Assembly (NCBI GenBank): GCA_964538855.1
Contig: CAZIEY010000001.1
Location: forward strand, 163,059-227,058
Source: an uncultured Candidatus Saccharibacteria bacterium
GTDB lineage: Bacteria > Patescibacteriota > Minisyncoccia > Phycocordibacterales > JAACPR01
DNA: 64,000 bases
Direction: 5' to 3'
In this document: one piece after another, positions 4,326 through 53,339 of the stretch
Layout of the letters: the number at the start of each line of letters is the position of its first letter
How positions within the stretch are numbered: position 1 is the first letter of the stretch
Position numbers and translations under genes: made by a program
Notes under the pieces: model-generated
Database searches by the model: none
What the model was told of the DNA's origin: nothing
What the model saw: only the letters and a program-made list of their open reading frames with translations

Positions 4326-4724
4326 TTACCTCGCCTCCACATCCGTCTGATGCAACCCAAAAGTGTTCCCTTCGGTATCGAGGAAATATCCTTGCCATGC
4401 CATGCCGACAAGCGCGAATTTTGGCATCGCGACAGTGCCGCCGGCAACGAGAATTTTCTTTGAGGTCGCTTCGTAGTCGTCGACTTGGACCGTGCAGACA
4501 AAAGAATTGACGCCGCATTCCTTTGGCAACGTTTTCGTCGGTCGCTTCAAAAGCCCGCCGTTGATGCCCGGCTCTTTACTTTCCTTCGGCGCGGTCATTA
4601 TTCCCCAATATTCCCATCCGAGCCCAGGATATTTTTCAATGCTCCACCCAAACACTTCTCGATAAAATTTCGCGGCACGCTCGGTATCTTCGGCTTGAAT
4701 TTCAAAATGGACGACTCGGTTCAT
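4326..4724 (-). CDS. VOC family protein (glyoxalase/bleomycin-resistance fold)
   Basis: 132 aa. VHFEIQAED...FYREVFGW start and paired beta-alpha-beta-beta-beta modules typical of the glyoxalase superfamily. Confidence 0.75.
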   Translation of the reverse strand: MNRVVHFEIQAEDTERAAKFYREVFGWSIEKYPGLGWEYWGIMTAPKESKEPGINGGLLKRPTKTLPKECGVNSFVCTVQVDDYEATSKKILVAGGTVAMPKFALVGMAWQGYFLDTEGNTFGLHQTDVEAR

Positions 4725-6793: not shown

Positions 6794-7369
6794 TTACTCG
6801 CGATCACGAAACCCTATCGGCTCTTTCTGCTTCTCCTCCTCTATCAAAAATTGCCGAATAGCCTGAAAGACGATTTTGAAATGACTATCGTATTTTTTCT
6901 CGAGCAATTCAATCTTTTCCCGCAATTCTTTGTGCGAGTCGATCATCTCGCGCAGCTTTGTAAAAATTCGAATAATTTGAATGTTGACGCGAATCGCCTT
7001 CTCACTATTGAGCACACTCGAAAGCATTGCGATGCCTTGTTCGGTGAAGACATAGGAACCATATTTTATGTTATGCCCAGACTTATTTTTCAAGGTCGCA
7101 AATTGCGACCTTGGGTCTATTCCGTCGTTTGAGGTCGCAAATTGCGACCTCAAAAACATTTCCGTTTCTTCAACTGACAATTGAAACATGAAATCATCTG
7201 GAAACCGATCATGATTTCTTTTTACTGCTTCGTTGAGACGCTTCGTCACCACCCCATACAGTAACGCCAAATCCCTATCGAACATGACTTTGCGACCGCG
7301 AATATAATAAATTTTGTTTTTAATGTCTTGATGAGTCAAACTTTCGGCGATTCCAATTTCTTTTTTCAT
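6794..7369 (-). CDS. ORF6N-domain protein (KilA-N-like DNA-binding, antirepressor-type)
   Basis: IYYIRGRKVMFDRDLALLYGV.TKRLNEAVKRNHDRFPDDFMFQL matches the ORF6N domain. C-terminal coiled coil. Contains an in-frame duplicated RSQFAT segment. Confidence 0.65.
   Translation of the reverse strand: MKKEIGIAESLTHQDIKNKIYYIRGRKVMFDRDLALLYGVVTKRLNEAVKRNHDRFPDDFMFQLSVEETEMFLRSQFATSNDGIDPRSQFATLKNKSGHNIKYGSYVFTEQGIAMLSSVLNSEKAIRVNIQIIRIFTKLREMIDSHKELREKIELLEKKYDSHFKIVFQAIRQFLIEEEKQKEPIGFRDRE
7093..7150. repeat. Two direct copies of a 19-bp near-palindrome (aggtcgcaaattgcgacct) spaced 39 bp, inside the ORF6N CDS
   Basis: Seen directly. GGTCGC-N5-GCGACC inverted repeat at 7093-7111 and 7132-7150. Encodes the duplicated peptide RSQFAT. 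Confidence 0.8.
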
Positions 7370-12795: not shown

Positions 12796-12871
12796 TGCGC
12801 GTGTAGCTCAGTTGGTAGAGCGGTCGACTTATACTCGATTGGTCCCAGGTTCGAGTCCTGGCATGCGCACC
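12796..12871 (+). tRNA. tRNA with anticodon UAU (tRNA-Ile2-type, decoding AUA), CCA encoded
   Basis: 76 nt. Acceptor GCGCGTG/CATGCGC. D-arm GCTC-AGTTGGTA-GAGC. Anticodon stem GTCGA/TCGAT with loop CTTATAC. T-arm CCAGG-TTCGAGT-CCTGG. Followed by ACCA. Confidence 0.75.
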
Positions 12872-12897
12872 AATAAAAGATTTGCTACAATACACAC

Positions 12898-14339: not shown

Positions 14340-16292
14340 TTACAACGCCTCCTTCTTCACCGGATGTGCAACTTTAATACCATGTGCAGCGAGCAACGCT
14401 TCGTAGTCTTCGCGTTCAATCGTTTCGACGTCGAGAAGGCGTTGCGCCAAAATTTCGAGGACTTTGCGATTTTCAGTGAGGATTTTTTCTGCGCGGGCAC
14501 GGGCTTCGGTCATGATGCGAGACACTTCGGCGTCGATTTTCGTTGAGACAGATTCAGAATATTCTTGACCTTCGATGCCACCGCGTCCGAATAATGTGCG
14601 GCCACTTCCCTCGAGGGCGATTGGTCCGAATGCGTCTGACATTCCATAACGTGTGACCATATCACGAGCAAGCGCTGTTGAAACTTGTAAATCATTGGAA
14701 GGTCCAGTCGTTACATCTCCGAATATCATTTGTTCAGTCACATAACCACCGAGTGACATTGCGAGGTCGTCGAGAAATGCTTTGCGAGATTGCAATTTGC
14801 GTTCTTCGTTTGGCAATTTCATTGTGTAACCACCCGCATGACCGCGCGCGATGATAGAAATTTTGTGCACAGGATCCGCGTCAGGCAAAATTGATGCAAC
14901 GAGTGCATGCCCCGCTTCGTGATATGCAGTAATTTCGCGTTCTTTTTTCGAGAGCAAGTGATTTCGGCGCTCAGGACCGAGCATGACTTTTTCAATCGAA
15001 CGAATCAAATCGAATTGTGCAACAGTTTTTCGATTTTCACGCGCTGCCAAAATTGCAGCTTCGTTCACAAGAGAATATAAATCCGCACCAGAAAATCCTG
15101 GAGTTCGTTGTGCGATAACTTCGAAATTCACGTCTTCAGCGAGCGGTTTGTTTTTCGCCTGCACTTTCAAAATCGCCTCGCGGTCTTTGCGGTCTGGCAA
15201 ATCAATAGTGACACGCCGATCGAATCGGCCTGGTCGCAAAATTGCAGGATCCAAAACGTCTGGACGGTTTGTCGCTGCCATCACAATCACCTTCTCATTC
15301 GGATTAAATCCATCCATCTCCACCAAAATTTGGTTAAGTGTCTGCTCGCGCTCGTCATTCCCTCCACCCGTACCGACACCGCGCGCTCGTCCCACAGCAT
15401 CAATTTCGTCGATAAAAATAATTGCGGGCGCCGCAGCTTTTGCAATTTTAAACAAGTCACGCACACGAGATGCACCAACACCCACAAACATTTCTACGAA
15501 TTCAGAACCAGAAACCGAGAAAAAGTTCACACCCGCCTCGCCCGCTGTTGCACGCGCAAGAAGTGTTTTTCCAGTACCTGGTGAACCCATAAGCAAAATT
15601 CCCTTTGGAATTTGCGCACCGATGTCGATAAACTTTTTCGGATTTTTGAGGAAGTCTACAATTTCCATCAATTCCTGTTTTGCTTCTTCATTACCAGCGA
15701 CGTCTTTGAATGTAACTTTTTTCTTGTCGCTTGGATTAAAGAGGCGCGCATTAGCTTGGCCGAATGTGAAAGCTTGCATGCCGGCACCTTTTACTTGGCG
15801 AGATAAATACCAAATAATGATTCCAATCAAAAGAATTGGGAAAATAAACGGAGCGCTGACCGCGAGCCAGTAGCCAAACCCAGACGGATTTTGAATGTCG
15901 ATTTTAATTGGAGCAAGTTCCGTCGCAGTAATTCCGTAATTCGACAATGTTTCAGACAATGCTGCATCACTTTCTTTTTGAGTTGTCTTTGTGGCTTCGG
16001 TCGGGGTACCCTTTTCATACACCACATTAATTTGATCGCCCGACACCGCGATTTCAGAAACTTTACCCGCGCGAATATCAGCGGCTAATTGCGAGAGCGC
16101 AATCTCTTCGACATTTTTCTTTTGCTCTGCCACAAATGTGTAGAGGAAAATAATCATAATGATAATCAAAAATGTTGTGCTAAGATTTGCAAAAAATCCC
16201 GCCGGCTTTTTTGAGTTGTGCGACTTTTTCATTTTGTGCTGCGGAGCCTGATGTGGCGCCCCACCTGGTGGCGTCTGATTGTGTTTGGTCAT
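14340..16292 (-). CDS. ftsH: ATP-dependent zinc metalloprotease FtsH
   Basis: 650 aa. Two N-terminal TM segments, Walker A ([13 protein letters not shown]), the SRH region, and the HEAGHAL zinc site. Confidence 0.95.
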
Positions 16293-17354: not shown

Positions 17355-17804
17355 ATGACAAACTTGATCGAAAATCGCAAAGCAGGATTCAACTATGAAC
17401 TCGGAGACAAATACGAGGCTGGTATTGAATTGACTGGGCACGAAACGAAATCAATCAAAGCAGGCCGTGGAAATATGACCGGCTCTTTTATTGTGATTCG
17501 TGGTGGCGAGGCGTTTATTTCAGGACTCGAAATTACATCGTTTCAAGCAAACAACTCCCCAATCGATTTCGAACCGCGACGCATGCGCCGGCTGTTGCTC
17601 AAAAAAAGCGATATTTCAAAGCTCCAAATGGCGGAGCAACGCGACCGTTTGACACTCATCCCACTTTCGTTGTATAATAAGGGTAAGTTCGTGAAGCTAT
17701 CCTTTGCGGTAGCTCGCGGAAAAAAGAAGTCCGATAAGCGCGAATCCATTCGCCGCCGCGAAGACAACCGCGACATCGAACGCACCTTGAAATCACGTCG
17801 ATAA
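17355..17804 (+). CDS. smpB: SsrA-binding protein SmpB
   Basis: 149 aa. IENRKA..Y...YEAGIEL.G.E.KS motif family. Lys/Arg-rich C-terminal tail. Adjacent to the tmRNA. Confidence 0.9.
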   Translation: MTNLIENRKAGFNYELGDKYEAGIELTGHETKSIKAGRGNMTGSFIVIRGGEAFISGLEITSFQANNSPIDFEPRRMRRLLLKKSDISKLQMAEQRDRLTLIPLSLYNKGKFVKLSFAVARGKKKSDKRESIRRREDNRDIERTLKSRR

Positions 17805-17954: not shown

Positions 17955-18326
17955 GGGGATGATCGGCTTCGATATACAATCGCCAATATATGTGCAGAAT
18001 AGAGCTCGAGTAACTCTTAAAAAGGCTCGAAACTACAAATGCAAAATCTGTCGTAAGCCCTTACTTTAAGGCAAACAAACTAGCATTCGCGTTCGCGTAA
18101 GCCAACACGACATCCGCGTATCTTACACCTGATACGATAAGGCGGGTGTTACCCCATCAGGTTAGGTGAAGTACACGCTCTTTGTACTTTTCCGAAACTC
18201 AAGGAGATCGGTCGCGCAACATTTCGTTCGCTCTAAGGTGCACGATCCAGAACAAAAAGCGTACTAGATTCTGTAGACTCATATATTGTCCTTGCATACA
18301 CGCGGGTTCGATTCCCGCCATCTCCA
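17955..18326 (+). ncRNA. ssrA: tmRNA (ssrA), one-piece; predicted tag ANKLAFAFA
   Basis: 5' end GGGGATGATCGGCTTCGA resembles the tmRNA 5' consensus. 3' T-arm GCGGG-TTCGATT-CCCGC and acceptor CATCTCC pair with 5' GGGGATG, including a G3-U70 pair. Resume codon GCA at 18071 and TAA at 18098 give the frame GCA AAC AAA CTA GCA TTC GCG TTC GCG. Confidence 0.8.
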
Positions 18327-18379
18327 CATTAAAAAGAAAATCACCCAACATTGGGTGATTTTCTTTTTAATGTGGAGAT
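18320..18379. repeat. Perfect inverted repeat with 29-bp arms and a 2-nt centre, overlapping the last nucleotides of ssrA
   Basis: atctccacattaaaaagaaaatcacccaa-ca-ttgggtgattttctttttaatgtggagat, verified base by base. Confidence 0.85.
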
Positions 18380-18535: not shown

Positions 18536-18663
18536 TCAAGACATTTTTCTCCAAAGTGATTCTAAGCTATTGGGATATTACGTAATCATTGACAAACCAC
18601 ACAACATTATGTAATGTACCAAATAGACGATTCATTTCCAACCCCAACCCCGAAGGAACTCTC

Positions 18664-19092
18664 ATGAACGCAACTGCAGATCTCATTCGCGACGACCGCT
18701 GCACCACAGCACTCAAACCGTTAGTCGAAGAGGGTGTCAACCGTCTGAAGACCTTCATCGTCTGCGCAAGCCTGGGCGATTTGAACAATTGGCACCTTCC
18801 CAAAGTCGGTCATGCCACCCTCAACCTAACGGTTCGGGATGGAAATATCGTCGAAGGGACGATTTCCATTCAGGATGGTGAAAACTTCACTGTCAAAGCC
18901 ATAGTCTCGGGACTGACGGGTAACTGCGTGGCGGTGATTGTGAATAAAAGCGAAGGTCCTGTGAAGCTGTATTTGAACATCCCACTCAAGGCTGACAGCA
19001 ACCCAGCTTTGTCAGCACTTTGTGAGATGAGAAAATGCGAGGAGCAGCAGCGAATTGAGAATGTCGCGACCAGGCTCAAAAACCTTCGATAG
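18664..19092 (+). CDS. Hypothetical protein (GC-rich)
   Basis: 142 aa from the ATG after the leader ccaaccccaaccccgaaggaactctc; the ORF opens at 18589. Followed by a terminator. Confidence 0.45.
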   Translation: MNATADLIRDDRCTTALKPLVEEGVNRLKTFIVCASLGDLNNWHLPKVGHATLNLTVRDGNIVEGTISIQDGENFTVKAIVSGLTGNCVAVIVNKSEGPVKLYLNIPLKADSNPALSALCEMRKCEEQQRIENVATRLKNLR

Positions 19093-22214: not shown

Positions 22215-22419
22215 ATAACCCCATCCTACCCCCTTCCAAAAATAAAACAAGCACTCCCTACTCACACCCCACCCCATCACCATCCCTATCCACATCAAAC
22301 ACATCCGCACCAATCACTCGTACCACTCCCGTATAATGAGGTCCGTTACCAGAGCCGCCAGCGCAGTCATATGTCACGTGGTGCCAAGCTATTGAAGGAT
22401 TACGCACCACTTGACATTA

Positions 22420-22448
22420 CTAATATATAAATGTATATTATCAAACGA
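22420..22448 (+). promoter_or_regulatory. Sigma70-like promoter (TTGACA-17-TATATT)
   Basis: -35 at 22420-22425, 17-nt spacer, -10 at 22443-22448, upstream of the 22488 ORF. Confidence 0.45.
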
Positions 22449-22487
22449 CCCCAACCCGTTCTTTACCCACCACATCAGGAGACAGCA

Positions 22488-22763
22488 ATGAAAAACCCCT
22501 CGGAATATTCTGGTCCGTTCATCATCGAAATCTGGAACGAAGCTAAGACGGAACACGTGCCGTCTTCCGCAAGGATTATTGATGGAAATCAGATCAGTGT
22601 CACATCCGGGCGTTTCCACAACTCCTTGGGTGGCATCCAATTCTATTCGGACGGGCAACCCTTCAGCTTTCATGCCTTATATATTCGCAGGATCACCAAT
22701 CCCAGCGGGCAAATTATCTGGAGGAACTGGCATAACAAGGATGAGCCGGTACCCGCCAAATAA
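22488..22763 (+). CDS. Hypothetical protein (GC-rich)
   Basis: 91 aa from the ATG after the RBS caggagacagca. Followed by a strong terminator. Confidence 0.45.
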   Translation: MKNPSEYSGPFIIEIWNEAKTEHVPSSARIIDGNQISVTSGRFHNSLGGIQFYSDGQPFSFHALYIRRITNPSGQIIWRNWHNKDEPVPAK

Positions 22764-28045: not shown

Positions 28046-28129
28046 ATTGACTTTTATTCACAATACAATAATATTGTGCAGGCTCTTGTTCATTTCGTCA
28101 AATCACACCCCTAACTCAAGGAGAAGTGC

Positions 28130-28403
28130 CGTGCCAAAACCAAAGCAGAAATTAGCACAACTGCAACTGAAAGTAGTGCGTCCGATTAACGCCACAAACA
28201 TTCAAACGAACACGCATGTGTCGCTACGCCCTGGAACATACATCGTTGAGTATATTGAACGCGCATGGGAGCCAGGAAGCATACGAACATGGATTGTTGA
28301 TACCAAAACTCAAATTGGAGTTCTTCTGGAACAGCTCAAACACGAACGCAATGCGACGCTATATGAAAATGGAGTAAGCATCAAGAAAAAGAAGAAGTCA
28401 TAA
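28130..28403 (+). CDS. Hypothetical protein (GTG start after AAGGAG)
   Basis: The ORF opens at 27972 but overlaps the MGMT gene. GTG at 28130 has an RBS 7 nt upstream. About 91 aa, Lys-rich tail. Confidence 0.4.
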
Positions 28404-44758: not shown

Positions 44759-44805
44759 AAAAGTTTGCCTATATTATCAATTTGACCTTGATAAGTCAAT
44801 CGATT

Positions 44806-47985: not shown

Positions 47986-48327
47986 TTATTTAGCAGGGGC
48001 TGTAGCAGCTTTTGCAGATTTAGAAGCAGCAATTTCAGCTTCTTTCTTTGCAACGTCCATATCTTTTTGCATTTTACCTCCGTGGTGTGTGAATTTAGTT
48101 GTTGGAGAAAATTCGCCAAGTCGATGACCCACCATGTCTTCTGTAACTAACACTTCGATGTGATTTTTTCCGTTATGAACACCAAATTTAAAACCGACCA
48201 TTTCAGGAGCGATAGTGCAATCTCGTGACCAAGTCTTAATCACGCCAGCTTGTGCTGGTTTTTTGCCTTCGATTTTCTTCATTAATTTCGGATCCAAGTA
48301 TGGTCCTTTTTTGAGTGATCGTGTCAT
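47986..48327 (-). CDS. rpsS: 30S ribosomal protein S19 (Ala/Lys-rich C-terminal extension)
   Basis: 113 aa, core [17 protein letters not shown]-like. Confidence 0.9.
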
Positions 48328-48365
48328 GTGATTAACGGAAAAAGCTCACCATGAGCTTGGGTGCT

Positions 48366-48393
48366 ATATTAGCAAATCGTCGTTAATTGTCAA
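48366..48393 (-). promoter_or_regulatory. Sigma70-like promoter for rpsS and downstream genes (TTGACA-16-TAATAT on the minus strand)
   Basis: Reverse complement reads TTGACAattaacgacgatttgcTAATAT. -35 at 48388-48393, -10 at 48366-48371. A hairpin plus T-run follows in the leader (48340-48358). Confidence 0.45.
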
Positions 48394-48433
48394 ATGGGTT
48401 TTGATGAATCAATATTAATTCGTGCAAAAAGTG

Positions 48434-48462
48434 TTGACATATGTGCATACGAAATGTATTGT
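48434..48462 (+). promoter_or_regulatory. Sigma70-like promoter for the antisense small-ORF cassette (TTGACA-17-TATTGT)
   Basis: -35 at 48434-48439, 17-nt spacer, -10 at 48457-48462. Confidence 0.45.
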
Positions 48463-48505
48463 GAATATGTACCGATCTTTCCACAAACCAACCGGAGACA
48501 GATTC

Positions 48506-48643
48506 ATGAAGGAATTATTTGTCACCCACCCCTTCTTAGCATGGGGAGGAGTACTGGGAGCACTGCTGTTAGTCGGACTCGTCATAACCGTCGTCGTTCT
48601 CTGCTCGAGAAGCTATCTCAGTGGAGCTGGCTATAAACCCTGA
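48506..48643 (+). CDS. Small single-TM protein (45 aa)
   Basis: MKELFVTHPFLAWGGVLGALLLVGLVITVVVLCSRSYLSGAGYKP. GGAGA RBS 7 nt upstream. Part of the 73-aa ORF 48422-48643. Confidence 0.4.
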   Translation: MKELFVTHPFLAWGGVLGALLLVGLVITVVVLCSRSYLSGAGYKP

Positions 48644-48679
48644 TCGATATCTCGACTAACTAACCCTGGAGGACTTCGC

Positions 48680-48808
48680 ATGATCGCATGGATTTCAAAC
48701 CACTGGTTCGGATTCAGCCTCTTTGTCGGGTTCGTCATCGTGATCAACACTATCGCGATACGCCGCGACAAAGCACAAGAACAGGCTGACCGTGAAGTTG
48801 CTGAGTAA
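48680..48808 (+). CDS. Small single-TM protein (42 aa, below the ORF-track cut-off)
   Basis: Hand translation MIAWISNHWFGFSLFVGFVIVINTIAIRRDKAQEQADREVAE. GGAGG RBS 7 nt upstream. Confidence 0.4.
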   Translation: MIAWISNHWFGFSLFVGFVIVINTIAIRRDKAQEQADREVAE

Positions 48809-48821
48809 AACGCGCAGCAAC

Positions 48822-48860
48822 AAAAAAGACGGGCCCTCACGGACCCGCCTTTTTCCTTTT
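48822..48860. terminator. Bidirectional rho-independent terminator between rplB and the antisense cassette
   Basis: 7-bp GC stem cgggccc/ggacccg with loop tcac, flanked by an A-run (5') and T-runs (3'). Perfect (with one G-U) when read on the minus strand after rplB. Confidence 0.55.
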
Positions 48861-48864
48861 TATA

Positions 48865-49719
48865 TTAAGCTGTCTTATTTTTCCCAACCTTTCGTCTTGA
48901 AACAATGAAATTGTTAGAGTATTTCTTTGGTTTTCGAGTTTTTTGGCCTTTACCTGTTGGCTTACCCCAGAGAGACTTGGCTCGTCGGAGTCCTCGACCC
49001 TGACGACCTTCACCACCTCCGTGTGGGTGATCAACTGGGTTCATAGCTGTACCACGAACTGTTGGGCGAATACCTCGGTGTCGGTTTCGACCCGCTTTAC
49101 CAATGTTTACAAGTCGGTATTCAGCGTTTGAAACTTCACCAAGTGAAGCCCAAGCAGTGCTGATGATTTTGCGAATCTCAGTTGAAGGCATTTTGATGTG
49201 AGTCATACCCATGTCCTGGGCGATAACTTCTGCAAAAATACCTGCTGCTCGCGCAATTTTCGCACCTTCGTTAGGACGAATCTCGATATTATAAACAAAC
49301 GCTCCTACTGGCATTTTGCCAAGTGGTAAACGGTTACCAGGCTTAATTTCAGCAGTTTCGCTCGCAATAATCGTATCCCCAACTTTCAAAGATTTTGAAA
49401 GCAATACATATCGGCGCACACCGTCGGCGTAACACACGAGTCCGATGAAACCAGATCGGTTTGGATCGTATTCCACACTTTCGATTTTCGCAGGAATGTC
49501 TTTTTTGTCGTATTTGAAGTCCACTTCTCGGAAACTTCGCTTCACACCGCCACCCTTGTGACGAACTGTGATACGACCGAGGTTGTTTCGACCGACAGAT
49601 CGGCGGAAACCTCCTACCAATGATTTGTGCGGCTCGCTCGCAGTCAAAATGCCTCGATAGTTAATCGATGACATGTCTCGTCGACCGGCGCTTGTTGGTT
49701 TATGATGTTTGATGCTCAT
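48865..49719 (-). CDS. rplB: 50S ribosomal protein L2
   Basis: 284 aa, G.GRN..G.ITVRH.GGG. Confidence 0.95.
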   Translation of the reverse strand: MSIKHHKPTSAGRRDMSSINYRGILTASEPHKSLVGGFRRSVGRNNLGRITVRHKGGGVKRSFREVDFKYDKKDIPAKIESVEYDPNRSGFIGLVCYADGVRRYVLLSKSLKVGDTIIASETAEIKPGNRLPLGKMPVGAFVYNIEIRPNEGAKIARAAGIFAEVIAQDMGMTHIKMPSTEIRKIISTAWASLGEVSNAEYRLVNIGKAGRNRHRGIRPTVRGTAMNPVDHPHGGGEGRQGRGLRRAKSLWGKPTGKGQKTRKPKKYSNNFIVSRRKVGKNKTA

Positions 49720-51951: not shown

Positions 51952-53142
51952 TTAGGCAATAACCTTTGTGATAACACCAGCTCCAACTGTTTTACCACCC
52001 TCTCGGATAGCAAAGTGTTGCTGATCTTCAAGTGCAACTGGACATACCAATTTCACTGTGAATGTTGCTGTATCTCCTGGCATAACCATTTCTACTCCCG
52101 CCTTCAAAGTAACATCTCCTGTTACGTCTGTAGTTCGCATGTAGAATTGTGGCTTGTAACCAGTGAAGAATGGTGTGTGACGACCTCCTTCTTCTTTCTT
52201 CAACACGTACACTTCAGCTTCAAATTCTGTGTGAGGTGTAACTGAACCTGGGAGACACAAAACCTGACCTCGGTGAACATCTTCTTTCTTCAAACCTCGG
52301 AGGAGGAGACCTGCGTTGTCGCCGGCGATTCCTTCTTGCAATTGTTTGTTGAACATTTCAATACCAGTCACAGTTGTCTTCATTGTAGGTTTGATACCAA
52401 CAAGTTCGATGTCTTGACCGATTTTGATTGAACCTCGTTCAATACGACCAGTAACTACAGTTCCTCGACCTTCGATTGAGAAAACGTCTTCAACTGGCAT
52501 GAGGAAAGGCTTAGCCAAATCTCGAACTGGTTCTGGAACATATGTGTCCAAAGCGTTGATAAGGTCGAGAATTTTCTTTGCCCATTCATCAGATGCAGAT
52601 GTTGCTTCGAGAGCTTTCAAAGCTGAACCTCGAATAACAGGAGCGTTTGAACCGTCGTAACCGTGTTTATCGAGCAATTCTCGAATTTCAGCTTCAACGA
52701 GTTCGATCATTTCTGCGTCGTCAACCATGTCGCATTTGTTAATAAAGACCACGATCTTTGGAACACCAATTTGTTTTGCAAGCAAAACGTGTTCACGAGT
52801 TTGTGGCATCATACCGTCTGTTGCAGCAACCACAAGAATAGCACCGTCCATTTGAGCGGCACCAGTAATCATGTTTTTGATGTAGTCGGCGTGACCTGGA
52901 GCGTCAATGTGCGCGTAGTGGCGAACATTTGATTCGTATTCCTGGTGAGACAATGAAATAGTAATACCTCGAGCTTTTGACTCTGGTGATTTATCAATTT
53001 CATCAACTGACTTCTTGCTGGCCATTTTTCCGTCCAATGCAAGGACGTTCAAAATAGCGGCAGTAAGAGTAGTCTTACCGTGGTCAACGTGACCGATGGT
53101 ACCGACGTTGACGTGCGGTTTGCTTCGATTAAATTCTGCCAT
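51952..53142 (-). CDS. tuf: Elongation factor Tu
   Basis: 396 aa with [18 protein letters not shown], and NKCD motifs. Confidence 0.95.
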
Positions 53143-53339
53143 TGTTTTTAAATTAATTTAATAAAGATTCTAAATAACTCTGTCTTGATTCTCTTCAGGG
53201 CGACCTTAGCAGAAGGCACGAGAACGCGAGCCTCTGCCCAGATCACCCTACCCATTTCCGATTTTTTGCAATACAAAAAAGCGCAAAATGCGTAGGAATT
53301 ATATTATCAGAGTTTTTCCGTGTTTGCAAATAAATATGA

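Follow-up and report, generated by a model that had tools for sequence, protein, structure and literature searches.

A break between rplB and rpsS in a clade of Patescibacteria and the small-gene cassette that occupies it in one member

In a 64,000-nucleotide stretch of contig CAZIEY010000001.1 (hereafter the window), from an uncultured bacterium of the Patescibacteria, the ribosomal protein genes rplB and rpsS are separated by a spacer of 537 bp that carries two small open reading frames (ORFs) on the opposite strand, hereafter designated pep1 and pep2. The adjacency of rplB and rpsS is among the most conserved in bacteria, archaea and plastids, and the pair lies within the syntenic block used for binning and placing uncultured lineages. 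We find that this adjacency is broken across a clade of relatives and that the DNA in the gap changes from one relative to the next. We propose, at a probability of roughly 0.7, that the S10-spc cluster of this clade is a two-unit operon with an insulated, hypervariable slot for accessory genes, of which pep1-pep2 would be the current cargo.

According to this model, the first unit (tuf-rpsJ-rplCDWB) would end at an intrinsic terminator directly after rplB, and the second would start from its own sigma-70-type promoter before rpsS, giving a transcript that opens with a hairpin and a U-run; the cluster would thus be read as at least two units in the clade. Because transcription would already stop and restart at this place, the stretch from the terminator to the rpsS promoter would be insulated, and accessory and selfish genes could be gained, lost and replaced there repeatedly without disturbing ribosomal expression. 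The pep1-pep2 pair would be transcribed from a promoter that stands back-to-back with that of rpsS, and its transcription would end, imperfectly, at the rplB terminator. Internal promoters, terminators and leaders in ribosomal clusters, integration hotspots and small membrane peptides each have precedents, and the pep1-pep2 cassette is ordinary cargo; the parts of greater interest are the clade-wide break and a leader module shared by tuf and rpsS.

The break between rplB and rpsS and its content in relatives

In the ORF list the spacer is bounded by the rplB stop codon at 48865 and the rpsS start codon at 48327, both on the minus strand; an earlier reading made from the letters of this DNA (the sequence-only reading) had put the interval at about 540 bp, with correct coordinates and gene identities. 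The gene for L2, rplB (48865–49719, minus strand), is the last of the tuf-rpsJ-rplC-rplD-rplW-rplB unit in the ORF list, is labelled Pfam Ribosomal_L2_N/C on an identical Logan contig and is 94% identical to P0002. The gene for S19, rpsS (47986–48327, minus strand), identified from the ORF list and Pfam labels, is the first of the rpsS-rplV-rpsC-rplP-rpmC-rpsQ-rplN... unit. The upstream unit is headed by tuf (51952–53142, minus strand), and the rest of the S10-spc cluster lies on the same strand. An independent public assembly, Logan SRR13208889, contains an identical spacer and genes with the expected Pfam labels. The GC content of the insert is 0.49–0.50, compared with 0.38–0.41 on the rpsS side and 0.47–0.51 in rplB; the statement that the insert is GC-richer than its surroundings thus holds towards rpsS but not towards rplB.

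The host is a bacterium of the Patescibacteria (candidate phyla radiation, CPR), assigned from its sequence to the Paceibacteria / Kaiserbacteria-Zambryskiibacteria neighbourhood. Among the matches listed, the best named L2 matches are metagenome-assembled genomes of Kaiserbacteria, Zambryskiibacteria and Paceibacterota at ~69% identity, and closer relatives have L2 proteins that are 94%, 84%, 78% and 76% identical.

The clade was taken to comprise the distinct loci (n = 32) with an L2 that shares at least 60% identity with that of the window. Among the matches listed, 23 of 28 clade loci have an rplB-rpsS gap of more than 150 bp (median 641 bp, range 22–1765 bp), and in four further clade loci no rpsS is found within 750–3985 bp of rplB. 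By contrast, 91 other bacteria, other CPR lineages included, have a median gap of 28 bp and a maximum of 129 bp, and none exceeds 150 bp. The difference between 23/28 and 0/91 indicates that the break is a lineage trait and not a peculiarity of one genome: on this sequence comparison it is clade-wide, and the earlier view of it as a striking one-off interruption is not supported. Comparison of the junction among relatives, which the sequence-only reading had proposed, shows the break to be shared, the terminator and the rpsS promoter and leader to be kept, and the cargo to be different. In a literature search of incomplete coverage, whose silence is not proof of absence, we found no account of an rplB|rpsS split, of accessory genes using such a split as a slot or of the rpsS leader in CPR bacteria. 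Even this operon, then, is not structurally untouchable, as a whole CPR clade breaks rplB-rpsS.

The closest relative (L082, 94% L2 identity) has a 1004-bp gap with two antisense ORFs of 82 and 72 amino acids (aa), each with a single transmembrane (TM) segment, in the same topology as pep1 and pep2. Each of the two has a TTGACA promoter, a CA-rich leader, a GGAG motif and a terminator, and neither has significant similarity to pep1 or pep2. At 84% L2 identity (L085), a 23S rRNA gene in operon orientation follows rplB by ~550 bp (4427–4629, plus strand of that locus) and runs off the contig end; an rRNA gene in the slot may be a cause of assembly breaks, and contigs may fragment there. The relative at 78% carries an antisense 192-aa membrane protein in the gap, and the one at 76% (L090) has a 122-bp gap without cargo, in which the promoter and the hairpin are kept.

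More distant members hold MazE/PemK, MazE-like/ParE and HTH-SocA/Panacea genes, a reverse transcriptase, IS200-like and rve transposases, DgkA (two loci), DUF5674, DUF2103, LTD/PKD surface proteins, a TaqI-like specificity domain, a histidine kinase, ArgRS and many proteins without a family; type II toxin-antitoxin (TA) pairs occupy the slot of L003, L009 and L125. With conserved core flanks and unrelated content, the slot is, as read from these sequences, a chromosomal hotspot of accessory genes. The break provides a defined, easily located site at which gene gain and loss in tiny symbiotic genomes can be studied. Individual occupants include a 322-aa reverse transcriptase with small neighbours (L120, 1964–2932, plus strand), an HTH-SocA/Panacea protein with a 146-aa partner (L125, 1477–2632, plus strand) and IS30-like rve and IS200-like Y1 transposases (L102, 170–1803); in L015 (4947–8741) a 1007-aa repeat surface protein adjoins a Y1 transposase-like gene.

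Genes of mobility type (Y1_Tnp, rve, RVT_1) occupy the slot in relatives. In the window itself the spacer has no terminal repeats, no target-site or att-like repeat and no mobility gene, an 11-nt A/T-run inverted repeat being all that was seen, and searches with the cargo DNA gave no match to phages or plasmids. The suggestion that the cassette is a fixed mobile insertion finds nothing here to build on.

Terminator, promoters and the start-site hairpin

Directly after rplB, positions 48822–48861 (minus strand) are predicted to form an intrinsic terminator that consists of an A-run, a 9-bp GC stem (48828–48836 / 48841–48849), a GUGA loop and a U-run (U6). Folded as minus-strand RNA, that is, on the rplB strand, the element reaches –26.2 kcal/mol (z –4.3), a stability equalled in 0 of 200 shuffles. 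The stem has an A-run and a U-run beside it on each strand, but the plus-strand RNA is less stable (–13 kcal/mol, z –1.1), as two G-U pairs turn into A-C mismatches. These models point to an element that is primarily the rplB terminator and secondarily a weaker stop for pep1-pep2 on the plus strand. The GC-rich terminator noticed by the sequence-only reading is therefore present, but asymmetric where it had been called bidirectional; antisense transcription running head-on into rplB, as also envisaged, would be limited by this shared terminator, yet the plus direction is the weaker one. A hairpin with a U-run right after rplB was picked up by a crude detector in 16 of 32 clade loci and in none of 92 other bacteria, and the folding energies of rplB terminators across loci range from –17 to –30 kcal/mol.

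Two sigma-70-like promoters are predicted back-to-back within the spacer, each a 10/12 match: TTGACA-16-TAATAT with an extended –10 TG (48366–48393, minus strand) for rpsS and the genes downstream, and TTGACA-17-TATTGT (48434–48462, plus strand) for pep1-pep2, upstream of the two small ORFs as originally described. No more than four sites in 11 kb match at 10/12, these two included. In total, the 11 kb contain as many promoter-like sites as expected from shuffles, so that one match on its own is little proof. The –35 boxes of the two promoters are separated by 40 bp, a spacing that L082 retains; there the cargo promoter aligns with the TTGACA of the pep promoter at an equal distance from the rpsS promoter. 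That agreement concerns one close relative; wider conservation of the pep promoter is not possible because the cargo differs. The leader that would follow the pep promoter is ~37 nt long and CA-rich, and has no structure beyond chance.

The rpsS promoter recurs. A TTGAC[AT]-N16-18-TAnnnT site lies upstream of rpsS in ~35 relatives, and the 75 nt before the rpsS ATG are 96% identical between the window and L082, compared with ~60% in the rest of the spacer, 76–91% in flanking coding DNA and 65–68% at third codon positions. The predicted rpsS 5′ leader (48328–48359, minus strand) opens at the predicted start with the hairpin AAGCUCA-UGG-UGAGCUU (48358–48342), followed by U5 and then by 14 nt to the rpsS ATG, with no Shine-Dalgarno (SD) motif. 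Hairpins with a U-run follow promoter-like sites in 30 of 44 cases upstream of rpsS, compared with 6 of 92 elsewhere in the loci. Their stems (4–8 bp, –6 to –12 kcal/mol) start at a median of 7 nt past the –10 box, which is the predicted +1. The claims that the operon is split, and that rpsS is restarted separately from a minus-strand promoter with a hairpin and U-run leader, have thus held up well: the terminator after rplB and the rpsS promoter and leader recur in the clade, and the latter two are the elements best supported by comparative data, with promoter activity itself predicted.

The stem is maintained by compensatory changes among relatives (AGCUC/GAGCU, CCCGC/GCGGG, ACGCC/GGCGU, GCCC/GGGC). 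In a 35-sequence alignment of a 7-pair helix, 81% of cells are paired, compared with 24–57% in slid registers; the covariation score is 0.326, compared with 0.209 in shuffles and reached in 0 of 500, and there are 26 double-change cells where shuffles give 11.4. This support is moderate, because the aligned sequences were chosen by hand and are related to one another. A covariance model built from that alignment ranks the rpsS site as the top match in the window (30.6 bits, E 4.7e-5) and, in 361 kb of the relatives' DNA, finds matches almost only upstream of rpsS, the others being a few hairpin and U-run elements near the rplB 3′ end and, separately, one weak match in L140. No Rfam family matches the window at gathering scores; the best match in E-value mode, L20_leader, has 23 bits where 58.7 are needed and is located on the rplB terminator. 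Compensatory pairs at one genomic position provide moderate evidence that the rpsS leader is a structured cis-regulatory RNA. We also considered hairpins and U-runs after promoters as a genome-wide feature and rejected this, as the rpsS site is the only one in 64 kb to show them, apart from a weaker case at tuf.

The leader hairpin is a more interesting element than the pep1-pep2 cassette, with a role that we only infer. Our preferred interpretation is a leaky, promoter-proximal terminator that would attenuate rpsS and insulate it from upstream read-through. It is favoured because the U-run stays attached to the hairpin in leaders of 80–160 nt, far from the ATG (L003, L004, L093, L110, L121), and because in L090 and L117, where the gap is short and there is no rplB terminator, the hairpin is the only terminator-like element between the two genes.

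The strongest competitor, which has a substantial though lesser chance of being right, is a 5′-terminal stem-loop that would guard a long, highly expressed mRNA from 5′-end-dependent decay of the RNase J/E type; the U-rich tract would be the place where ribosomes land independently of an SD motif. Stabilisers of this kind need tight 5′ placement, as is established for the ompA, ermC and aprE leaders, and a stem that begins at the predicted +1 (median offset from the –10 box, 7 nt) has that placement. The leader stems are also short and weak next to the rplB terminators, rpsS lacks an SD motif and the tuf promoter is of like design. Because the stem starts at +1 and is weak, this explanation comes close to the attenuator in likelihood. 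Retention of the U-run with the hairpin in the long leaders, a hallmark of intrinsic terminators, and the lone hairpins of L090 and L117 speak against it.

A promoter of the same design is predicted at tuf: TTTGCA-16-GATAAT at 53330–53303 within an element at 53267–53330 (minus strand), with a CGCA/UGCG hairpin and U6 near the start. This site is the second-best covariance-model match in the window (17 bits, E 0.24), and the element is retained in L082, L091, L004, L007, L010 and L014, where its stems covary; three of the six hairpin and U-run sites counted above as lying elsewhere are tuf promoters of relatives. The likeness of the tuf and rpsS sites implies that both halves of the split cluster begin with a promoter, a start-site hairpin and a U-run. 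A speculative extension, to which we attach rather low odds, is that the hairpin and U-run form an undescribed cis-regulatory module that co-ordinates the two operon halves in Paceibacteria through premature termination modulated by a factor or by nucleoside triphosphates, that it replaces L4/S8-type feedback leaders, and that the break it creates opened the L2|S19 slot. The conserved promoter-hairpin-U-run module at rpsS and tuf is in any case a concrete candidate for the control of ribosomal protein synthesis in these organisms. The tuf leader is ~130 nt long and has a second conserved hairpin, GGGCAGAGGCUCGCGUUCUCGUGCCUUCUGC, further downstream (~53205–53240, minus strand).

The pep1-pep2 cassette

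The two ORFs are predicted to encode orphan single-pass membrane proteins, pep1 of 45 aa (48506–48643, plus strand; TM at about residues 12–33) and pep2 of 42 aa (48680–48808, plus strand; TM at about residues 9–27). Their Kyte-Doolittle 19-residue maxima of 2.89 and 2.14, respectively, are both membrane-grade, and pep2 ends in a charged C-terminal tail, RRDKAQEQADREVAE. A GGAG at 48494–48497 precedes pep1 and a GGAGG at 48668–48672 precedes pep2, so that the SD motif lies 7–11 nt upstream of the ATG in both. The 36-nt gap between them contains no promoter, and the unit is apparently bicistronic. In 5000 dinucleotide shuffles of the spacer, an ORF with an ATG, an SD motif, at least 35 aa and a TM-grade stretch arises in 0.04%, and two of them in tandem on one strand in 0/5000. 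The first description, of two tiny TM-protein genes of 45 and 42 aa with GGAG-type ribosome-binding sites, is borne out, and the pair is non-random by this test.

GC content at third codon positions (GC3) is 0.52 and 0.60 in the two ORFs, compared with 0.29–0.42 in core genes, and an SD-like motif precedes 0 of 17 ribosomal-cluster genes and 7 of 53 genes elsewhere in the window. Since their GC3, promoter, leader and GGAG match those of other stand-alone orphan genes, and in view of the shuffle result, pep1 and pep2 are probably real genes of one bicistronic unit, and the cassette is probably expressed. Stand-alone orphans in this style are found at 18664–19092 and 22488–22763 and after the promoter at 28047 (plus strand); the regions concerned (18589–19092, 22411–22763 and 28047–28403, plus strand) share a TTGACA promoter, a CA-rich 'CCAACC' leader, a GGAG SD motif and a GC3 of ~0.6, and have no Pfam match.

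At pep1, the public gene caller chose an 80-aa ORF in another frame in the Logan assembly, in which pep2 is called as a gene. We rejected this 80-aa ORF: it lacks an SD motif and a hydrophobic segment, its GC3 is low, and its start falls within the promoter.

The two ORFs share a 20-nt direct repeat in codon alignment (80% identity; 48566–48585 and 48719–48738, plus strand). It encodes L[LF]VG[LF]VI in the membrane helices of both peptides and hints that the pair arose by local duplication.

Homologue searches for both peptides, which the sequence-only reading had proposed, found none. Exact look-up and a word-indexed search of 5.8e9 proteins gave no homologue of pep1. For pep2, only the self-match was recovered among 5.8e9 clustered proteins (word-indexed) and 1.84e9 representatives (phmmer, without a word index). 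Searches by tblastn and blastn against 172 related loci and the window returned nothing but self, and no Pfam or PADLOC model, small-toxin families included, matched at E up to 10. BLASTP found nothing between pep1/pep2 and the two L082 ORFs. In a shuffle-calibrated global alignment, pep2 and the 72-aa L082 ORF score at p 0.004, with cross pairs scoring at p 0.02; orthology with the L082 ORFs is unproven, as the cross-pair controls score too, and the marginal score probably reflects shared architecture.

Several points weigh against the model of a split operon with an accessory slot. The clade was delimited by similarity and not by a tree, and its members were drawn from the matches listed, a sample that is not exhaustive. 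Some clade members have gaps of 22–45 bp with neither terminator nor hairpin, which makes the break common but not universal. The activities of promoters, terminator and leader are predictions, and peptide production is something that we infer. The criteria of the shuffle test were set post hoc, after the ORFs had been seen, and pep1 and pep2 are known from one sequence in two assemblies. A terminator-like hairpin at +1 would also be odd for an attenuator, as it leaves no room for an upstream anti-terminator.

We consider it unlikely, though worth weighing, that the two ORFs are transient or non-functional, either proto-genes or decaying remnants that would be transcribed by virtue of a bidirectional rpsS promoter region. 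Their strict orphan status, even towards the relative with 94% L2 identity, would fit such an origin, as would the sharing with L082 of only the divergent promoter position, the recent local duplication suggested by the 20-nt repeat and the other frame chosen by the gene caller at pep1. Tandem ORFs with ATG, SD motif and TM-grade helix, absent from all 5000 shuffles, argue for genes instead, together with a GC3 and leader style like that of other stand-alone genes of the genome and the two small TM ORFs that L082 independently keeps at this place with promoters, SD motifs and terminators.

A type I toxin-antitoxin-like module, in which one or two membrane toxins would be checked by an antisense RNA such as rplB read-through, is quite improbable. 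Type I toxins are small, hydrophobic, single-helix peptides, usually made from translationally locked mRNAs. Peptides of 42–45 aa with a single TM helix, and the charged tail of pep2, have the look of such toxins; type II pairs sit in the slot of three relatives, and the convergence with rplB would yield an antisense overlap if the terminator leaks. The peptides match no Pfam or PADLOC model, however; promoter-like sites are absent from the minus strand between 48400 and 48860, the SD motifs are exposed in 5′ regions without structure, and the rplB terminator is strong in the antisense direction.

Least probable of all is an antisense cassette that would regulate rplB or rpsS, either through competition between the two promoters or, at the rplB 3′ end, through collision or antisense pairing. 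In its favour, the –35 boxes are close together (40 bp, as in L082), and the weaker plus-strand terminator makes some read-through antisense to rplB plausible, but most relatives keep the terminator and the rpsS promoter and leader with cargo that is co-directional, unrelated or missing (L090), so the operon has no need of an antisense unit. The idea of a dedicated regulatory device built around the cassette is likewise not supported, given that the cargo differs in nearly every relative and the peptides have no homologue.

Neighbouring features and comparison with known systems

Further along the cluster, a promoter-like TTGACT-17-TAATAT with TG (44771–44799, minus strand) lies in the 47-bp rplE/rpsN gap, its end 12 nt short of the rpsN ATG, and may mark a further internal start in the spc part. 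Many genes of the window have a TAnnAT box that ends ~7 nt before the ATG and no SD-like motif, as upstream of 8684, 12898 and 13843 and for the genes at 14340–16292 and 6794–7369 (both minus strand). These boxes and the scarcity of SD motifs suggest that leaderless or SD-independent translation may be widespread in the host. An ordinary tmRNA gene, with the tag AKSVVSPYFKANKLAFAFA, adjoins smpB (coordinates 17955–18329 and 17355–17804, both plus strand). Bacteria usually read AUA with a lysidine-modified CAU tRNA; the window has a tRNA-Ile with a UAU anticodon (12797–12872, plus strand), which is uncommon in bacteria.

Like the type I toxins Hok, Ldr, Fst, TisB and BsrG, pep1 and pep2 are hydrophobic single-helix peptides of fewer than 60 aa with a promoter of their own; unlike them, they have a leader without structure and lack both a cognate antisense RNA gene and any match by sequence or profile.

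The slot resembles integration hotspots and variable islets in its conserved flanks and in the differing accessory content of close relatives, and the genes that it is enriched in (toxin-antitoxin, reverse transcriptase, restriction-related and transposase genes) are those of hotspots as well. It differs in that no integrase or att-like repeat marks it in the window, that its flanks are genes of the most conserved operon known and that many of its cargoes are single tiny genes.

The Escherichia coli S10 leader, which acts by L4-mediated, NusA-dependent attenuation, is likewise the leader of a ribosomal protein unit with a hairpin, a U-run and a potential early stop. It lies upstream of rpsJ, however, and is a larger, multi-helix RNA, placed ~140 nt from the start, that binds L4. 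By contrast, the rpsS leader is a single 5–7-bp hairpin at +1, with a sibling at tuf, and its loop and stem sequences are not conserved.

Closest in position is the alphaproteobacterial L2 leader candidate, found upstream of rplB-rpsS-rplV-rpsC (Eckert & Weinberg 2020, PMC7247131). Both are internal control points in the S10 cluster by rplB and rpsS. The alphaproteobacterial leader precedes rplB and leaves rplB and rpsS adjacent, whereas in the clade described here the break falls between the two genes and comes with a full predicted terminator, a new predicted promoter and inserted genes.

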